64,000 nucleotides of DNA from a virus (lineage: Duplodnaviria; Caudoviricetes): positions 80,549 through 144,548 of the IMG/VR virus record IMGVR_UViG_3300014205_000181; one strand, given 5' to 3'. Position 1 is the first letter of the stretch, and every line of letters starts with the position of its first letter. A model generated the notes under the pieces. It had not been told where the DNA came from, did no database searches, and saw only the letters and a program-made list of their open reading frames with translations. Of the stretch, positions 21,145-62,465 are shown piece after piece. The position numbers and the translations under genes are program-made.

Positions 21145-22611
21145 TTATTCTCTAATACGTTTCCGAATATCAGCAAGTGAATCATCAACTAAAAGAACTC
21201 CATTCTCAAACACTGATAGCATTTCACATTTTATCTCATGATCAAAAGAAAGACCATCAATACACTTAAATTCGCCGTCTTCCTTAATCACAGCAACACA
21301 ACCAGTATTAGATTTTTTAGTTCCATCATCGGTAGCTGGATTTTTATAAATCTGTTTTTCTTCTCCATTAATCTGGCACATAGTTGATTTCAGAGCAAAA
21401 CCGAAAGAGTCCTTAGTATTGTATTGGTATGTATAACTACCCACACCAAATACAATATTCGTTGAAGAAAAGCCTTTCTCCTTCAACCCATGACAAATAC
21501 GAGTACAGCGGTCAAGAGTAATAGAATCACCATAAATTGCCCCAATATGAGGATCTAGTACTTTATAACCCTTTTCATTTACTACGCCACCAAAAATATC
21601 CCAGAGACATTCAATCAGCCCTTTCTGAATCATCGGATTGCTAGAAAATTTATCACCGCAAATGATCTTAACTGGGTCGCCGGAATCAGGTCTAATCACG
21701 GCCTTTCCATCCCGCGCCATAATTTCACTTTTAAGTGGCTTGATAATATTTTCAACACAAGACCACAGGTTCCAAGTATCAGAAACAATACTCACGATAC
21801 CACTTGGATAAACCTCAGTTAATAGGCGTTTATAAGTATTAAATTCATTTTCGCCATCACCACCAGCACACATCACAGAATGCTCAGTGGCATTTACACT
21901 ACAGCCGACAAGTTCTTTTTCAATATCCGCATTATAGTATTCTTCGAGATGAAAAATTGCTGGAATCGTATCAGTACCAACGAACGAAAGTAAATGTCCT
22001 GCGCCACTAGAAGCGGCGGACTCAAGACAGCTCATTCCCCTCATAGAAAAATCATGAGCTTGGAATTGTACGAATTCAGGGTCTCCAGTTTCTTCAGCAT
22101 AAGAATCCAAAATGGTTCGATATTCAGAAGCGGTAGTCGCTGAAGTACTAGCCATCCATAACTCAGTAGAAAGAATAGTTTCTACAAAATTAGTCAGCCA
22201 AAAGAATCTAGGATTAGTATTTTCAATAGTTAACATTGGAACCCGAATTGAAACCTTTGTTCCCTCCGGCAATGACTTAATCAAAAGAGGCAAATAGCCA
22301 AGGTCGTGTAGGTCTTCAATATGCTGAGTATGTGGTTCCTTAATCCCAAGAGCAAATTTTAGAACGCGGGTGTATTCATTAAGAACTTCCTCCTTGCTCC
22401 GAGAAAAGAAATGTGTATTAAAGTAATTAATAAGATACTTCTTAACAAATGCCTGAATGCCAAAAACTACAACTTTATCTGTGGTGGGATGATACTTGTT
22501 GCTTCTGGGAGTCCAAGTAGAATAAACCTTTTCTGTCCCAATCGGATACTGCTCTCGGTGAGAAACCTTATAAAAATCACATAGAAGAGTTGCTGGATAA
22601 ATTGTTTTCAT
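21145..22611 (-). CDS. Nampt-like enzyme (NARP1 Namat candidate)
   Basis: DFYKVSH..QYP, HDFSMRG, ATEHSVM, SIVSDT, IRPDSGDP, IYGDSIT. Confidence 0.9.
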   Translation of the reverse strand: MKTIYPATLLCDFYKVSHREQYPIGTEKVYSTWTPRSNKYHPTTDKVVVFGIQAFVKKYLINYFNTHFFSRSKEEVLNEYTRVLKFALGIKEPHTQHIEDLHDLGYLPLLIKSLPEGTKVSIRVPMLTIENTNPRFFWLTNFVETILSTELWMASTSATTASEYRTILDSYAEETGDPEFVQFQAHDFSMRGMSCLESAASSGAGHLLSFVGTDTIPAIFHLEEYYNADIEKELVGCSVNATEHSVMCAGGDGENEFNTYKRLLTEVYPSGIVSIVSDTWNLWSCVENIIKPLKSEIMARDGKAVIRPDSGDPVKIICGDKFSSNPMIQKGLIECLWDIFGGVVNEKGYKVLDPHIGAIYGDSITLDRCTRICHGLKEKGFSSTNIVFGVGSYTYQYNTKDSFGFALKSTMCQINGEEKQIYKNPATDDGTKKSNTGCVAVIKEDGEFKCIDGLSFDHEIKCEMLSVFENGVLLVDDSLADIRKRIRE

Positions 22612-43516: not shown

Positions 43517-43981
43517 TTAGTTGATTTGTTTGCGGTTAATAAAATTTGAATAAGTACCGAAATTATTTTTTAAATCATTAAGCATCGTTTCGTCATTCAG
43601 CCCTTTTTCTTTAAAAACGTACTCAACATATTCGTGGTCGTATAATTTCTTTCTACGTTTATTTACTTCTTTAATTTTTTCGAACACAATATCTCTATCA
43701 ATACCATAAGTTTCTAGAAGATATTTTGCTATTCCCGGATAAGAAATTTCTTTAAATTGGCAAATCGGGCATGAAGATTCAGAGTAGCAAGAATCTCCCC
43801 ACCCGTTTTCCGATTGGTCTTCATTCAATAAATGCTCATCGCAAATCACATGGCCGTTGACACATTCAGCGAATCCTAAATCCTCTGGACTTGCATCCCA
43901 ACCTGATTCAGTTGCACTACAAATTTCACAGACAAAAGAACTTGAACTTGAGTTGCTTACAAAATAGTTCCTGGATTTCAT
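43517..43981 (-). CDS. SNSSSSS-motif protein 3 (Cys-rich)
   Basis: MKSRNYFVSNSSSSSF, then CEIC, CVNGH..C, CPIC. Confidence 0.8.
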   Translation of the reverse strand: MKSRNYFVSNSSSSSFVCEICSATESGWDASPEDLGFAECVNGHVICDEHLLNEDQSENGWGDSCYSESSCPICQFKEISYPGIAKYLLETYGIDRDIVFEKIKEVNKRRKKLYDHEYVEYVFKEKGLNDETMLNDLKNNFGTYSNFINRKQIN

Positions 43982-43983
43982 AA

Positions 43984-44349
43984 TTAATAACCTCCCTCAC
44001 TTTCGATAACAACCATATCACTTGAACCGATATTGTTTAATCCATTCTTGCATAGAAAGCTTTCTACCCCACCTTCTTTACTGCTGAACGAACCCATTAG
44101 AATTACCTTTCCTCCTTGAATAGCAGCCTTGGCCTGATTATATCTATCATCTTCTAACATCTCTTCGGCACTATAACAATATCCTTCCACAAAATAACGT
44201 GCTAATTCTTCAACCGTTTTAATTGTATCCCTTGAATATGTCCGCAAATCAACCTCAATTTCCAATTTAACCTTTGGATTGTCTCCGTTTACTGCTACGA
44301 TAAATGAAGAACTTGAACTGTTACTGACGAAAAAGTTTCTCGATTTCAT
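43984..44349 (-). CDS. SNSSSSS-motif protein 2
   Basis: MKSRNFFVSNSSSSSF N-terminus. Confidence 0.8.
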   Translation of the reverse strand: MKSRNFFVSNSSSSSFIVAVNGDNPKVKLEIEVDLRTYSRDTIKTVEELARYFVEGYCYSAEEMLEDDRYNQAKAAIQGGKVILMGSFSSKEGGVESFLCKNGLNNIGSSDMVVIESEGGY

Positions 44350-44364
44350 ATTAATATCCTTTAA

Positions 44365-44970
44365 TTAATGGTGACTGAATTGTCTATAAGTAAAATATTT
44401 TTCCCAATTGAAATCATGTTCAATTTCACGCCCTAATTCTGTATCGTCTCCGAACTCACCTACCATGAAAAGTTTATATTCTTTAAATTCAGAAATAAAT
44501 TCATCTACTATTTTAACGAACCTAACTCTTACTTCTGGAAGGTCGAACCATTCTTTTTCTACCTTATATTTCGCACTATAATCGTCTTGTTTAATTTTTC
44601 TTTTCGTTATTTCATTATCGGCCCACTGTTTCATAGGAGTTGGCCTTGAAGAGTAAAAGAAACCATTCCCAGAACCATATTCTTCTGAATAATAAAAATT
44701 ACTAGCCAATTCTGATAAAACATTATCTTCATCGTATCCGCTGATTTCTTCCCATGGTTTATTTTCTGCTGATTCTTTTAATTTTTCTAAATCTAATGGG
44801 AATTCTTTTAGTCCCTCAAATATTCCACGCAAAACCGAAATACTTACAGAATCTTGTTTATCGCCAAACCAAACATCTGCCGCTTCTTCTGGAGTTTCAG
44901 GAATTTTGTTTACTCCGATGATAAAGCTTGAAGAACTTGAATTACTTACGAAAAAGTTTCTTGACTTCAT
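44365..44970 (-). CDS. SNSSSSS-motif protein 1
   Basis: MKSRNFFVSNSSSSSF N-terminus. Confidence 0.8.
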   Translation of the reverse strand: MKSRNFFVSNSSSSSFIIGVNKIPETPEEAADVWFGDKQDSVSISVLRGIFEGLKEFPLDLEKLKESAENKPWEEISGYDEDNVLSELASNFYYSEEYGSGNGFFYSSRPTPMKQWADNEITKRKIKQDDYSAKYKVEKEWFDLPEVRVRFVKIVDEFISEFKEYKLFMVGEFGDDTELGREIEHDFNWEKYFTYRQFSHH

Positions 44971-44985
44971 TTAAATCTCCTTTAA

Positions 44986-46014
44986 TTACACATCAAAATA
45001 TGGGCAAGACCTATTATTGCCTTGAATTTTATTTCGCTCAATACAAGTTGATTTCTTAAACCATAAATCCTCCAAGAAATTATTTACACCTGCCATGTCA
45101 ATCCCATCCGTTTCTTTATTTGAAAAAGAACAAGGATGAAATACACCATTTACATCGATATAAGAGCTAAAAGATGCACTTTCGCAAGGCTCAATAGACT
45201 GTTCAAAATGTTTCAAAATACCCCAATCTCTAAACATATCCATCAATTTATTTGCACCACAAGAATCACAGCCATATCTTATGTCATTGAATAAACAGTA
45301 CTTGACAATATGGCTAAATTTTTCAGTACTCAGTTTGTGGTAATTAGTCCCACGACCTTTCTGTTTTAGAGAAAGAAAAACAATCGCATTTAATTTCTCA
45401 AGTCTTGGATCACTCTTTATATCTCTGAGTGTTTCTAGCGTTTGTCTATAAGTTTCTTCGCTGATGAGCATATGCACATTTATTTGGGTCATACCTTTAT
45501 CAGTCAATCGTTTAACGGCATTGTAACAAATATTTTTATCCGCATAGCGAGAAACCGCAACTGCTCCACACAGAGAAGAAAGTTTATCTACAATATCGTC
45601 CGTCAATCTATCGCCGTTTATTGTGACATTAGGGATAATTGTATTTTCTCTACAGTATTCCATCATCTTCCATAATTCGTCTGAGACATCTACATCGCCA
45701 ATTCCAAATGCCGTTTGCGTAAGTAGGTGAATGTTGTTATATTTAGGAAATTTATCAATAATACTCTTGAAAGTATCAAATAACATGTGTTTTCCGTTAG
45801 ATGTATTGGACTTATAACAGTGCTGGCAGCCAAAACTACAAATGCTAGATGCCTCTAAATCGAGAATAAAAGGCCCATACGGAGAATATTCGGGATCGAT
45901 GCTTTTTTTCTCTCCCCATACTTTTGTATTTCCATTTTCCATATTAAAATCATAATTAACATCCGAACTTCTAAAAAACTTTTTATTTTTTTCTATAATA
46001 ATAGTCGGCTTCAT
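44986..46014 (-). CDS. radical SAM protein with SPASM/twitch-like C-terminus
   Basis: CSFGCQHC; CES...YIDVNG..HPCSF...CP. Confidence 0.9.
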   Translation of the reverse strand: MKPTIIIEKNKKFFRSSDVNYDFNMENGNTKVWGEKKSIDPEYSPYGPFILDLEASSICSFGCQHCYKSNTSNGKHMLFDTFKSIIDKFPKYNNIHLLTQTAFGIGDVDVSDELWKMMEYCRENTIIPNVTINGDRLTDDIVDKLSSLCGAVAVSRYADKNICYNAVKRLTDKGMTQINVHMLISEETYRQTLETLRDIKSDPRLEKLNAIVFLSLKQKGRGTNYHKLSTEKFSHIVKYCLFNDIRYGCDSCGANKLMDMFRDWGILKHFEQSIEPCESASFSSYIDVNGVFHPCSFSNKETDGIDMAGVNNFLEDLWFKKSTCIERNKIQGNNRSCPYFDV

Positions 46015-46792
46015 ATAAGCACCATCCCTTTGTATTTAAGGTTTTATTTTTATATCTTTCATGAATAATTTTAGGGTCAAACACTTTATTTACATATCTT
46101 TTTAGAGAGGTATAAGATAAACCATTTTCTTTACAAAACCTTTTCACTTCTCCCTTAACCTTTATTATATCTCCGCTTGGCGAAACAAATACCCATTCTT
46201 TCGCATTTGGGTTTTTGAAACCTTGGGTATTATTCCTACAAATCTCTTTTAGCCTTTTAGATTTCTCCTGTCCGTGCAATTCATCAAATTTTCTATGATC
46301 GCCATAACGAGGATTCCCACTACCCTTCAACCTATCCTTGCGCCTTTTCTTACCTTCTTCCGAATTATACCCAGAAGTAGGATCTTTACACCTCAATTTA
46401 TTTGCTTCTCCTATTTTTTTGATATATTGATTTGTTTCTATCGGAATCATCGTATATCCGGTTGGGACCATTCTTCTGTAAATTTGTTAATGGTCCTTTT
46501 TTATCTTTTAGCGTCCCAATTTCATTAATTAGTTTAGCCTCTATCTCATATGCTCTATATTCACTTAAATTTGTTTTTAACTTAACTATCTTGGGAGTAA
46601 GGCCGTCATTAAGGATAGATCTGATTTTATTGTCTTTTATAAAATTTTTATTTTGTTTTAAATTTGATTCATGAAGATGTTTTTATACCTGTAACCCTTA
46701 CCTTTCCCAACATAAAAAATTTCTGGAGGATCTTTTCTAGGATCTAAATAAGCGTAAACATAAGACTCTCCCATATCGCTAGGAATAATCAT
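45983..46792 (-). pseudogene. GIY-YIG homing endonuclease with two compensating homopolymer frameshifts
   Basis: YVYAYLDPR..FYVGKG, then (shifted frame) HL...AYEIEAKLI..IG....GPLTN, then G.GNP.YG and NUMOD-like tail. Confidence 0.75.
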
Positions 46793-46814
46793 CGTATTGT
46801 TACCATAATAAAAT

Positions 46815-46931
46815 CTAAAAATCATTTTTATCTTTTCCCCATCTATCAAATTTTCCCGTAACCATATTAAAATCGTAATTGTAATCTTCTGACCTGAATT
46901 GTTTTACATTTCTATTAATTTCAAGTTTCAT
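46815..46931 (-). pseudogene. orphan N-terminus of a radical SAM allele
   Basis: MKLEINRNVKQFRSEDYNYDFNMVTGKFDRWGKDKNDF* aligns with the rSAM start (KKFFRSSDVNYDFNMENGNTKVWG). Confidence 0.8.
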
Positions 46932-47020
46932 TTTGTTCTCCATAGTAAATTGTATAATTAATTTAACCCCCGTATTCAACACCCACAACTTACTAAACTA
47001 CACCCAATAAGTCAAGATAA

Positions 47021-48145
47021 TTATCCCTCAAATAATCCCTGATCGTTACACCATTTCGCAAAATTATCCAAGCTATAATCACTGCACAAATTTCCTGGGC
47101 AAATTTTCGAAACTTCTTCATTTTTACTCTTAAAGATAAATTCAAGGAAATATTGTGCTCTTTTCCCCTTTGACGCCATTGTACCGCTATACAACTCACC
47201 AGCGCACCACGAAGAAAATTTCTTTTTATTTTCTTTATAAAAAGCGTTTAACTTCTTCGTAGCAATCCTGAATTTATTCTCTTCAACAGTATCGAATTTA
47301 ATTTTTTGAATATCCTCAATACCGTTTATCTTTTCTTTTTTGGTTATGCGCAAATATTCTTTCTTCAACTGAATGGTAACTTCTGGATCTTCATCATCCA
47401 TCAAATACCCAGACACTTTAGCTAAATCTGGCTTCTTATCCAAATACTCTAAAAAGTATGATCGTTCTTCTGAACCATAAGAGTTATGTAGAAAACTAGG
47501 CAATCCCGTTTTTTGCAGCGCCTTCTTATACCCATTGAGTGGCATATAATTATAATTAAGAGCAGCTAAAGCGAAATTGTCAATACTTGTTTTTATTTCT
47601 TCTACAGTAAAAACTCTATCTGCATATTCACCAAATTTTCCATTTTTATCAAAGAAAGAAGCACTCAATAATTTCTTCAACATTTTTACTGCTTCTTTGT
47701 AGGTATTCGTATTTGGAAATTTATGGTGAACAATTTTTTTTGAATTCCAGTATTCAATCAATTCCAGTATATGGGCTGGTACTTTTGGCAATGGTTTAGG
47801 TGCTGGAGGTTTTTGTTTTAATGTTCTTTGAATTTGTTTTGGAATTGTAGGGATTGATTCAACTGGTTTGTGTTTTGGAGTTCCTTTAGGTGTGCGTTGT
47901 GGAATTCCTTTGGGAGTTCGTGTTGGCTTAATTTTAACTTGTTCTTCTAAATATTTGTTATACGAATTATCGTTAACAATAGAAAGACATTTTAAATCAT
48001 AATTGTCCCCGTCAATCCTATAACCTAAAGACAAACACCAGTTGGGGGTATTTGGTAGCTTAGATTTCAGAATTTTTACACTTCCAATTGGCAGTTCGCC
48101 TTGATCAAAATTGATTAGAATTGGAACTTCAATAAATTCGCTCAT
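47021..48145 (-). CDS. hypothetical protein with Pro/Lys-rich linker
   Basis: 374 aa ORF; RTPKG repeats. Confidence 0.6.
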   Translation of the reverse strand: MSEFIEVPILINFDQGELPIGSVKILKSKLPNTPNWCLSLGYRIDGDNYDLKCLSIVNDNSYNKYLEEQVKIKPTRTPKGIPQRTPKGTPKHKPVESIPTIPKQIQRTLKQKPPAPKPLPKVPAHILELIEYWNSKKIVHHKFPNTNTYKEAVKMLKKLLSASFFDKNGKFGEYADRVFTVEEIKTSIDNFALAALNYNYMPLNGYKKALQKTGLPSFLHNSYGSEERSYFLEYLDKKPDLAKVSGYLMDDEDPEVTIQLKKEYLRITKKEKINGIEDIQKIKFDTVEENKFRIATKKLNAFYKENKKKFSSWCAGELYSGTMASKGKRAQYFLEFIFKSKNEEVSKICPGNLCSDYSLDNFAKWCNDQGLFEG

Positions 48146-48906
48146 TCAGATTCCCCAATCCCATGATGTTTCTTGTGACATTTAGTACATAAACAAATCA
48201 GTTCTTTTAGGTTATCTAACTCGTACCCTAAAATTTTATAATTACTATGGTGAGCGTTTAAGTCAAAACCTTTATGGTTACATAATTGGCACTTAAAATC
48301 AGCCCTTTTCTTAACTTCTGTACTGATAATCTGCCAATATGGAGTTTTTACATAATATTTATAAGCAAGATCTTTAGCTTCGTCAACAACCCATTCCCAA
48401 TCAATTTTTCTCTTCATCTCTCGCAACAAAGAAAGTCTTTCGAAGTGTTTTACGCCGTTGTCTAATTTTATTCTTGGATTTAAATAATTAAAAATAAACT
48501 CATAAGTCTCTTCTTTTATCCTCTCTTTATCTTCTTCTATCCTCTCTTTCTCCGCTTTTTCTTTTTCCTCTTTATTTTTTTCAATAATATCCCAGCACGA
48601 TTGACATATACCTGAACCAATCGTTTGTTTAAACGCCTCTTGAGGTTTCTTATTTCCCCTAATTGCGTTTATAAATTTAAGAATACTTATATTATCTTTA
48701 AATATATGGACTTCTTTATTGCATCTGAAACACCTATGGGCTACTTGAAAAAGGGAAGATTTTCTATTATCGAAAAGTAATTTGACCTTATCTTTGTGAA
48801 ATTTTGCCATACTTACTAAGTCATTTAAATCAATTTGTTCATTATTATTAATTATCGGCGATTGATTTAAAAAGGCAAACACTAAATTTTTTGTTTCTTC
48901 TTCCAC
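48142..48906 (-). CDS. HNH-domain protein
   Basis: YW......KKRADFKCQLC...AHH..Y.......LICLC.KCH. Confidence 0.75.
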   Translation of the reverse strand: MEEETKNLVFAFLNQSPIINNNEQIDLNDLVSMAKFHKDKVKLLFDNRKSSLFQVAHRCFRCNKEVHIFKDNISILKFINAIRGNKKPQEAFKQTIGSGICQSCWDIIEKNKEEKEKAEKERIEEDKERIKEETYEFIFNYLNPRIKLDNGVKHFERLSLLREMKRKIDWEWVVDEAKDLAYKYYVKTPYWQIISTEVKKRADFKCQLCNHKGFDLNAHHSNYKILGYELDNLKELICLCTKCHKKHHGIGESE

Positions 48907-59199: not shown

Positions 59200-60339
59200 T
59201 TATAATATTAATTCTATTTGTTTATCTTGGTAAGTACACACAGTATAGGCTAACGCACCAGTCGAACAACCACCTTTATGCAACGCATCATATAGACCCG
59301 AAGAAACTATAATGCAGTTCTCTGGATCTAAAGCCAGACCCGGCTCTAGTTTCTTCGGGTCTATATGATGCGCTATGAGGTCATCATTAGGATGCGTTGA
59401 ATCGATAGTACAGAAGTTATAACCATATTCCTCTCGTTGACGTTTTAAGTTCTCTTCTCTCCATATTGAAAGTTCGTGTGGTGTTGGTTGATTTAGATTT
59501 TGCCTTGTGTTTGGGTCAGATCGTAATTTATATAAAATACACGAATGCTTACAATCATCTGAACAATATAAATTGTGTTCTGTTCCCAAAGAATACCTCC
59601 AAGGGTTTTCTATTGTACTAATCCTACTCCACAATTGGTAACTAGTTGGAGGGAACCACTTCTCACACTTCTTGCACCTTACATCAATTCCAAGTTCTCC
59701 ATTTATCCTGTCTCGAATCTCTTCTATTTGACAAAATAAGGGGTATTTGTCTTGATAATCTTTGACTTGCAGAGTAAATCTTTCTTTTGCTTTTTCGGAA
59801 GAGTAACATCCGCAAGAAGTCGTCGCCCCAGTTCTTAAACTACCTAATTCGTATCTTCCAATATTCCCATCACAAGAGCACTGAGCTATTACTTGTCGCG
59901 AATTATTAGCCCCTCTCTCAACTTCACCTAATACGGTCAGTCTCCCATATATTTCCCCTATTACATCCTCTCTTTCTCTTTCCACTTCTTTTTTAAAACA
60001 ACCACAGGATTTAGATTTTCCACTATTTAGATCATACAACCTAACATTCTTTACCGTTTTCTCAATGCAGTCGCATTGACATAATATTGTTCTATCTTTT
60101 CCCCTTGCTACCTCTAGCTCTCTGATCACCACCCATCTACCAAACTTGTCTCCTGGATTTATCTCGATTTTCCTAATTTTGATATTATTCTTATTGAGAA
60201 TATTCCTTATCGTTAAGGGGTGTATTCCAAACATTTTCCCTAATACAGGAGATTTGATATTTTCTTCTGTATATAATCTACATACTTCAATAATCTGTTC
60301 ATCGGTTAGTTTTCTTTTACCCATTAATACCTCCTTCAA
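59200..60339 (-). CDS. HNH homing endonuclease, paralog of 3323..4465, with N-terminal HTH
   Basis: Two SCGC modules; shared FC.IEEI.D...WF.PT..QLW.RI..YCSD.CK..C.LY; AHHIDPKK. Confidence 0.8.
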   Translation of the reverse strand: MKEVLMGKRKLTDEQIIEVCRLYTEENIKSPVLGKMFGIHPLTIRNILNKNNIKIRKIEINPGDKFGRWVVIRELEVARGKDRTILCQCDCIEKTVKNVRLYDLNSGKSKSCGCFKKEVEREREDVIGEIYGRLTVLGEVERGANNSRQVIAQCSCDGNIGRYELGSLRTGATTSCGCYSSEKAKERFTLQVKDYQDKYPLFCQIEEIRDRINGELGIDVRCKKCEKWFPPTSYQLWSRISTIENPWRYSLGTEHNLYCSDDCKHSCILYKLRSDPNTRQNLNQPTPHELSIWREENLKRQREEYGYNFCTIDSTHPNDDLIAHHIDPKKLEPGLALDPENCIIVSSGLYDALHKGGCSTGALAYTVCTYQDKQIELIL

Positions 60340-62377: not shown

Positions 62378-62465
62378 TGGTCCAAACGGAGGGAGTCGAA
62401 CCCTCAATCCCATATGGGCGGGAGATTTTAAGTCTCCAGTGTATCGCCAATTCCACCACGCTTGG
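62378..62465 (-). tRNA. tRNA-Leu (anticodon UAA)
   Basis: CCAAGCG/CGTTTGG acceptor, GGAGA-CTTAAAA-TCTCC anticodon arm, long variable arm, GAGGG-TTCGACT-CCCTC, encoded CCA. Confidence 0.95.

Follow-up and report, generated by a model that had tools for sequence, protein, structure and literature searches.

The locus and its shared N-terminal tag

We analysed a 64,000 nucleotide (nt) long stretch of tailed-phage DNA (IMG/VR record IMGVR_UViG_3300014205_000181, positions 80,549 to 144,548), which we call the window. Within it, four genes are packed on the minus strand between positions 43517 and 46014: a gene for a radical S-adenosylmethionine (SAM) enzyme and, following it, three genes whose products start with almost the same 16-residue peptide, in the following termed the tag. 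The enzyme gene (44986..46014, minus strand) codes for 342 amino acids (aa) and was classified using PHROG 7293, PF04055, an AlphaFold2 (AF2) model, Foldseek and VIA-align. The three tagged genes were taken from the list of open reading frames (ORFs) and lie on the minus strand as well. They encode a 201-aa protein (44365..44970) without Cys, a 121-aa protein (43984..44349) and a Cys-rich, zinc-finger-like 154-aa protein (43517..43981), whose bodies, i.e. the parts following the tag, carry net charges of -16, -7 and -11, respectively. The intergenic gaps from the enzyme gene via the 201-aa and 121-aa to the 154-aa gene amount to 15, 15 and 2 nt, and a Shine-Dalgarno-like AGGA/GGAGG is found 5' of each gene. 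A promoter and terminator scan of the locus provided no signal exceeding the shuffled expectation.

The tag reads MKSRNFFVSNSSSSSF in the 201-aa protein (codons 1-16, 44923..44970, minus strand) and again MKSRNFFVSNSSSSSF in the 121-aa protein (codons 1-16, 44302..44349, minus strand), while the 154-aa protein carries MKSRNYFVSNSSSSSF (codons 1-16, 43934..43981, minus strand). Thus 15 of 16 residues are identical in all three, corresponding to the pattern MKSRN[F/Y]FVSNSSSSSF. A first-pass annotation of the DNA had reported three genes of 201, 121 and 154 aa that share 15-16 N-terminal residues, and both the lengths and the identity are borne out. On the DNA level, synonymous differences in at least one copy affect 12 of the 16 tag codons, among them AGY <-> TCN switches between serine codons. 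This indicates that the tag is kept by selection at the protein level, as had been supposed, rather than representing a recent DNA duplication or an RNA element. A role of the conserved 5' ends in RNA or translation control is likewise ruled out by the codon diversity.

Among 339-510 unique tagged proteins the family consensus was M1 K2 [IVT]3 R4 x5 G6 F7 V8 S9 N10 S11 S12 S13 [ST]14 S15 F16; in 423 of 427 cases the tag opens the ORF, its first codon being the start codon. Each Ser position draws on all six Ser codons. R4, N10, S11 and S12 are essentially invariant, the latter three being unchanged in 507-509 of 510 tags with rare exceptions that look like decayed ORFs, and the hydrophobic anchors F7, V8 and F16 are near-invariant. 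A hidden Markov model (HMM) of the tag alone retrieved 25,951 clusters at 50% identity (E<=1e-3), with the match nearly always beginning at residue 1. About ten database proteins (P0121-P0130) contain two complete tags, with a Met in front of the second, internal one; neighbouring tagged genes seem to have been fused in frame or read through. One of these proteins, P0130, also shows a sister form of the tag, MK.R.DFVTNSS, on the Cys-rich body family of the 154-aa protein.

The tag varies naturally in a manner that is coordinated within each genome. At a locus termed L160 all eight tags carry A9, at L007 all four carry S6/A9, at L118 all four carry W7/G9, and in the window all three carry S3/N5/[FY]6. 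The corresponding strings are FVANSSS in the eight L160 tags (on a logan SRR33443033 contig), SFVANSSS in the four L007 tags and WVGNSSS in the four L118 tags. Over positions 3, 5 and 6 the similarity between different body families of the same genome was 0.612, compared to 0.502 with shuffled genome labels (standard deviation 0.010, 0/2000). Such coordination per genome is as predicted for a single shared reader in each genome. While tag positions 3-6 follow the genome, positions 17-18, which are hydrophobic in most tagged proteins, follow the body family, which places the end of the tag at F16. Overall, 94-96% of the tags have G6, but the three proteins of the window have F, F and Y, and those of its nearest relative, L159, have C, G and Y.

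These variants narrow the conceivable chemistry. Judged from the sequence variants, Gly6 is dispensable, and so is Ser9, while R4, F/W7, V8, N10, S11, S12, S15 and F16 are not. A glycyl radical at R-x-G-F is excluded by F/Y6 in the tags of the window, and the activase of pyruvate formate-lyase (PFL) is only a distant structural match of the enzyme (Z 13). A cyclophane between F7 and S9 in F7-x-S9, or any other Ser9-specific chemistry, is weakened by the lineage-wide A9 and G9 variants.

Beyond the tag, the proteins have little in common. The three window proteins do not align past residue 18, fall into different BLAST clusters in a larger sample and exhibit no profile-profile similarity, in agreement with the earlier description of them as unrelated after the shared N-terminus. 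In the larger sample the bodies formed 125 BLAST clusters, 88 of them singletons, i.e. more than 100 unrelated families, and hhalign comparisons among the 12 largest families gave probabilities of at most 25%. The bodies measure 61-269 aa (median 130), with a net negative charge in 97% of them (median -11). Searches of the tagged proteins against Pfam, NCBIfam and PHROG returned no real family, the match to phrog_7397 being confined to the tag.

The 121-aa and the 154-aa protein belong to the two most widespread body families, and the 201-aa protein to a rare one that ends in ...RQFSHH and is represented behind the enzymes of L159 and L160 by an orthologue sharing this C-terminus. The family of the 121-aa protein is the commonest (35 members in 32 loci). 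The AF2 model of the 121-aa protein has a predicted local distance difference test (pLDDT) score of 88 overall and of 52 over residues 1-10, with the first secondary structure not before residue 35. Given the floppy N-terminus of this model, the tag is not a buried core strand. A fold search of the Protein Data Bank (PDB) with this model gave nothing significant (ClpS rows at E ~2 were disregarded), and a tblastn search with the 121-aa protein, in which the low-complexity filter masks the tag, gave one weak match only. The conserved extreme C-terminus of the family, ...EGGY or, more broadly, E/D-G-G-Y, recalls the C-terminal Tyr targets of MftC-type radical-SAM enzymes; the enzyme may also act on the ...GGY end.

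The 154-aa protein represents a family of 29 members in 24 loci. Its body contains 6 Cys in the pattern CxxC...C..GH..C..H...CPxC, which starts straight after the tag, in line with the earlier remark that the last protein is Cys-rich. It matched zf-RING_5 with E 5e-4, below the cut-off, and in the ESM Atlas it found only viral 'hypothetical' clusters, the largest having 1184 members.

The radical-SAM enzyme

The enzyme matches PHROG 7293 (annotated as 'unknown function') with E 3e-75 and PF04055 with E 1.4e-6 and 29.0 bits, just below the cut-off of 29.5. Its homologues comprise 1572 proteins at E<=1e-5. Membership in the radical-SAM superfamily, in which a CX3CX2C motif ligates the [4Fe-4S] cluster that binds SAM, is supported by such a motif (C59/C63/C66) that is invariant among 30 aligned homologues and by an AF2 model that matches many solved radical-SAM enzymes with Z>13. 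In the same alignment four C-terminal cysteines (C252, C277, C295 and C337) are invariant, as is C163, a non-cluster Cys in the enzyme core. The model (pLDDT 92.5) consists of a small N-terminal beta domain (residues 1-45), a partial TIM barrel core and a twitch-like C-terminal domain. Within the first of these, a four-stranded beta unit at residues 4-33 precedes the barrel.

A Foldseek search of the model ranked SuiB first (E 3e-11), followed by CteB, SkfB, anSMEcpe, TigE and EpeE. Structural alignment by VIA-align resulted in Z scores of 22.9 for SuiB, 22.8 for SkfB, 18.8 for anSME, approximately 18 for viperins and 13 for the PFL activase. SuiB and SkfB thereby exceed anSME, CteB, TigE, viperins, ChlB and PqqE by about 4 Z units, and their alignments begin at model residues 4-10, such that the N-terminal beta domain is included. 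In a profile search against the PDB only BtrN (core and twitch hairpin, E 9e-4, 'idvdGkfyPC' aligned) and SkfB matched.

The first-pass annotation had labelled the enzyme as SPASM/twitch-type. The class as such stands, given the CX3CX2C motif and the twitch-like C-terminal domain; a full SPASM domain does not, as there are four invariant C-terminal cysteines and no match to PF13186 at E<=1. A SPASM domain (PF13186 / TIGR04085) has seven or eight C-terminal cysteines in the arrangement CX9-15GX4C ... CX2CX5CX3C ... C, binding two auxiliary clusters, whereas the twitch domain of enzymes such as BtrN, SkfB and MoaA is a shortened version, a beta-hairpin whose Cys ligands hold one auxiliary cluster. 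Some homologues do carry a precomputed PF13186 match. We therefore describe the enzyme as twitch-like, in agreement with the profile alignment to the BtrN twitch hairpin and with the Z of 22.8 to SkfB, the cluster content being predicted. From the sequence, four C-terminal ligands would suffice for one auxiliary cluster. No NCBIfam model of the named radical-SAM equivalogs anSME or FxsB matched the enzyme at E<=1. Because its nearest structures and profiles are SuiB, SkfB, anSME and BtrN, the modelled enzyme is placed in the peptide- or protein-modifying SPASM/twitch class, outside every named family.

We also looked for changes in the enzyme that could accompany the tag variants. A substitution A153S/D at first seemed a candidate, but A153S occurs with ordinary S9 tags as well. 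In the L118 enzyme (n=1) a unique CGVVDVSNY replaces the conserved CGAVAVSxY strand, which may be a change compensating the tag variant of this locus.

Several observations concern interruptions of the enzyme gene. Immediately 5' of the intact gene there is a 57-aa ORF (46815-46988, minus strand), residues 19-55 of which are 49% identical to enzyme residues 2-38 (E 1e-8; profile match E 2e-8). From this resemblance to the enzyme N-terminus the ORF is what remains of the 5' end of a second allele. Next to it comes a broken GIY-YIG homing-endonuclease gene, consisting of an N-terminal 63-aa piece (46658-46849, minus strand) and a 162-aa C-terminal piece (45983-46471, minus strand) with stops in between. 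Together, the relic ORF and the broken gene suggest that a homing event struck the enzyme gene or its immediate vicinity and left this scar. A search of the enzyme gene for group I introns with Rfam gave no match. In the Cronobacter phage vB_CsaM_leB (NC_048645.1 / KX431559.1, 92106-93334) the homologous radical-SAM gene is annotated as two coding sequences and matches in two pieces, suggesting a second interruption, here in a cultured phage.

Association of enzyme and tag

The association of enzyme and tag was examined in both directions. Starting from the enzyme, an alignment-based scan of IMG/VR provided 80 viral loci with 10-kb flanks, 76 of which contained 1-13 tag genes on the same strand within 10 kb. 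Including the four variant tags of L007, obtained with a looser search, this number rises to 77 of 80, with 1-15 tag genes each. On contigs of metagenome-assembled genomes, tags were present at 16 of 21 enzyme loci, and the remainder were mostly short contigs. Starting from the tagged proteins, the enzyme was found within 10 kb in 14 of 22 loci seeded with the family of the 121-aa protein and elsewhere on the contig in 2 more. For 25 loci seeded with the tag-only profile the respective numbers were 17 and 2, with no enzyme in 6. Randomly chosen tagged representatives sit on contigs of 1-6 kb only, which are too short for determining linkage. The first-pass annotation had suggested a motif HMM and its co-occurrence with the enzyme as a check; with tags at 77 of 80 enzyme loci and the enzyme on the contig of 19 of 25 tag-seeded loci, motif proteins that usually occur without the enzyme are not what is observed.

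No third conserved family was seen across 81 loci, the next commonest neighbour being present in 11 of them, and the enzymes of these loci are only 40-68% identical. Neither a protease, nor an exporter, nor a second modifying enzyme is linked to the module among the 81 loci. In the window, and in the whole 3.7-Mb bin, there are no tag copies other than the three described, and all three adjoin the only enzyme of this family in the bin, apart from the short relic fragment. In L159 the enzyme is 68% identical, and the three body families of the window recur behind it, albeit in another order. In total, the pair of enzyme and tag is seen in hundreds of phages. Cultured T4-like phages that infect enterobacteria, among them phages of Klebsiella, Enterobacter and Escherichia, possess the system as well, with 172 GenBank records. 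Among complete cultured genomes, Vibrio phage D479 carries the enzyme and 5 tags within 11 kb, and Klebsiella phage KP27 the enzyme and 2 tags that are 19-23 kb away.

The best-supported reading, which we nevertheless consider only about evenly balanced, is that these genes constitute a two-component phage module in which the enzyme binds the free N-terminal tag, a portable modification handle, and carries out radical chemistry at N10-S12 or close by. According to this reading one twitch-type radical-SAM enzyme would recognise the 16-residue N-terminal peptide on unrelated small acidic early proteins. The free peptide would enter the enzyme, possibly guided by the small N-terminal beta domain. 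The 5'-deoxyadenosyl radical would then abstract a hydrogen from the invariant N10-S11-S12 segment, leading to a covalent change. One candidate is the oxidation of Ser to formylglycine, by analogy to anSME and BtrN. Another is epimerisation, for which the invariant non-cluster C163 might act as a hydrogen-atom donor; in EpeE the equivalent Cys donates a hydrogen atom. A third candidate is an aryl cross-link to F7 or F16. The modified tag would confer the same property, e.g. a reactive group, protection or stability, on many different target-binding bodies.

The acidic early-gene bodies are, as a conjecture, host-takeover or anti-defence factors. In its widest form, which we put forward more tentatively, the reading states that a single enzyme installs one covalent modification (e.g. 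the aldehyde of formylglycine, a D-residue or an aryl cross-link) on a universal tag, and that dozens of acidic binding proteins per genome, unrelated to one another, thereby become modified effectors directed at host targets or defences. This would be a protein-scale analogue of the leader logic of ribosomally synthesised and post-translationally modified peptides (RiPPs), extending over ~26,000 clusters.

The first-pass annotation had read the Ser-rich N-terminus as a shared modification tag or cofactor-forming site in a system of a maturase and its clients, and this is partly supported. That the nearest structures are peptide- or protein-modifying maturases counts in favour of modification, as do the dense co-directional packing of the genes, the linkage in both directions with no third partner, the extreme N-terminal position of the tag, its co-evolution within genomes and the unrelated bodies. 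Several points weigh against it. The support it has is of two kinds, genomic association and fold class. Two tag-bearing contigs rated 79% and 88% complete contain no detectable enzyme, and the distance of 19-23 kb in KP27 shows that adjacency is not obligatory. No PqqD-like or RiPP recognition element (RRE) domain for leader binding was detected in the enzyme by Pfam or NCBIfam. Furthermore, in the 154-aa protein the tag abuts the zinc-finger body without a linker, which is awkward for threading the peptide into the barrel after folding.

The linkage and the co-evolution within genomes would fit a shared binding partner equally well. The tag could thus be a non-covalent handle that remains unmodified and plugs the bodies into the enzyme, for instance by adding a beta strand to the N-terminal domain of the latter. 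In that case the bodies would be regulators of the enzyme or interchangeable specificity adaptors that bring host targets to it, similar to F-box proteins for a ligase. Such docking agrees with the near-invariance of F7, V8 and F16, with a conserved N-terminal beta domain that aligns with those of SuiB and SkfB, and with the diversity of more than 100 body families, which suits target recognition. A pure docking strand would, however, tolerate replacement of Ser by Thr or Ala, in conflict with the constancy of N10, S11 and S12, and the nearest solved relatives all modify the peptide that they bind. We regard docking without modification as unlikely.

Alternatively, the tag could be a sorting or turnover signal, for capsid targeting or as a degron, that is read by other machinery, with the enzyme being a mere neighbour in a hyperplastic early region and acting on a different, perhaps small-molecule, substrate. 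The internal proteins of phage T4, whose otherwise unrelated bodies have a short capsid-targeting peptide in common at the N-terminus, offer a precedent. Viperin-like nucleotide-modifying enzymes are among the structural matches (Z ~18), and some tags are remote from the enzyme, as in KP27, or lie on contigs where no enzyme was found. Yet the enrichment of one enzyme family beside the tag far exceeds what shared regulation would give, the enzyme and the tags being the sole two conserved families across the 81 loci despite the divergence of the enzymes. The tag contains no Glu and hence no (L/I)xE site for a prohead protease, the head genes are ~80 kb away on the other strand, and SuiB and SkfB score ~4-5 Z units above the viperins. 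Taken together, a targeting signal is quite improbable.

That the three genes are fast-evolving paralogues sharing one fold, in which the motif would form a core strand or a loop for ligand binding and the enzyme would be linked by synteny alone, is barely credible. Aligned with MAFFT, mixed bodies do show a hint of a recurring 'strand plus acidic-Gly' element towards the C-terminus, and residues 17-18 are mostly hydrophobic. However, the bodies split into 125 clusters with hhalign probabilities of at most 25% among the 12 largest families, some are zinc-finger-like and others alpha/beta, residues 1-10 of the 121-aa model have a pLDDT of only 52, and positions 17-18 vary with the body family but positions 3-6 with the genome.

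We found no published description of the enzyme-plus-tag pair: the strings NSSSSSF and FVSNSS do not occur in 8.4 million texts, and keyword searches of the literature likewise gave nothing relevant. If modification of the tag holds true, it would constitute a very widespread post-translational system in which radical-SAM chemistry is applied to whole, diverse proteins via a portable N-terminal tag rather than to dedicated short precursors. The tag would then mark ~26,000 clusters (50% identity) of previously unrecognisable phage early proteins as one functional cohort, probably serving host takeover or anti-defence. Tag and enzyme could also become a tool for site-specific protein modification.

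The host contig is that of a tailed phage of at least 144.5 kb. Genes for terminase, portal, prohead protease, major head protein and tape measure lie upstream on the same contig, and the window itself contains a replication module with DNA polymerase, NAMPT, DNA ligase, DnaB-like helicase and RNA ligase. The system is thus phage-encoded, as had been stated earlier. The tagged genes belong to this replication/early module. A megablast search of the region against GenBank phages gave no match. The nicotinamide phosphoribosyltransferase (NAMPT) gene of the module is full-length (21145-22611, minus strand; PHROG 448, E 5e-201); NAD-salvage genes of this kind have been reported in large phages. 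Genes for HNH-type endonucleases are located at 48142-48906 (minus strand, with a C-terminal CxxC...HH..CxxC motif) and at 59200-60339 (minus strand, matching PHROG 374), and the phage is rich in selfish nucleases. One tRNA gene is found at 62381-62465 (minus strand; Rfam RF00005, 46.9 bits).

Comparison with known systems

SuiB (StrB) makes the Lys-Trp cross-link of streptide, and SkfB makes the thioether of the sporulation killing factor. No structures match the phage enzyme better than these two, over almost the full length of its model and with the N-terminal domain included. They have in common with it the CX3CX2C core, a C-terminal auxiliary-cluster domain (of the twitch type in SkfB) and their location beside substrates that share a recognition sequence. 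The identity to the phage enzyme is, however, only 12-15%. Their substrates are short dedicated precursors with a cleaved leader, whereas the phage tag is borne by full-size proteins of more than 100 families, contains neither Cys nor Trp, and is accompanied by no linked protease or exporter. SuiB moreover has a full SPASM domain with two clusters, in contrast to the four conserved C-terminal Cys of the phage enzyme. Compared with RiPP maturases that use an RRE, the phage enzyme gave no PqqD/RRE hit with Pfam or NCBIfam; its four-stranded N-terminal beta unit, here taken as residues 4-45, lies within the SuiB and SkfB alignments.

Both anSME/AtsB and BtrN are radical-SAM dehydrogenases. Like the putative phage system, anSME/AtsB has whole proteins as substrates, in which it oxidises a Ser or Cys residue to formylglycine, and anSME matches structurally with Z 18.8. 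By sequence profile BtrN matches best, its twitch hairpin included, and a Ser-rich target suits alcohol-to-carbonyl chemistry. Against anSME, the (C/S)xPxR motif is absent from the phage tag, there is no sulfatase domain in the bodies, no NCBIfam anSME model matches at E<=1, and anSME has two auxiliary clusters.

The T4 internal proteins resemble the tagged proteins in that several unrelated small phage proteins carry one short N-terminal peptide; the T4-type peptide ends in an (L/I)xE site, and the genes are expressed together with the head genes or close to them. The phage tag differs by lacking a Glu protease site and any link to head genes, by its specific linkage to a radical-SAM enzyme and by the acidic nature of its bodies. 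Glycyl-radical enzymes with their activases require an invariant, radical-carrying Gly in an R-V-x-G-[YF]-like motif, whereas G6 of the tag is replaceable.

FxSxx-COOH peptides and their radical-SAM/SPASM enzyme FxsB are found in bacterial conflict systems (Kaur et al. 2020, PMC7159879). Also there, a radical-SAM enzyme is combined with variable partners that share a short terminal F-x-S peptide (PMC7159879), reminiscent of F7-V8-S9 of the phage tag. That peptide, however, is C-terminal and located on short peptides within vWA-MoxR/AP-ATPase ternary systems (PMC7159879), whereas the phage tag is strictly N-terminal. In addition, S9 of the phage tag is replaceable by A or G lineage-wide, no FxsB model matches at E<=1, and no such neighbours are conserved. 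In its presumed operation the module resembles a radical-SAM maturase together with its substrates. It differs from every named system in that its substrates would be whole proteins of many folds, its tag is strictly N-terminal, it has no accessory genes and it is phage-borne.

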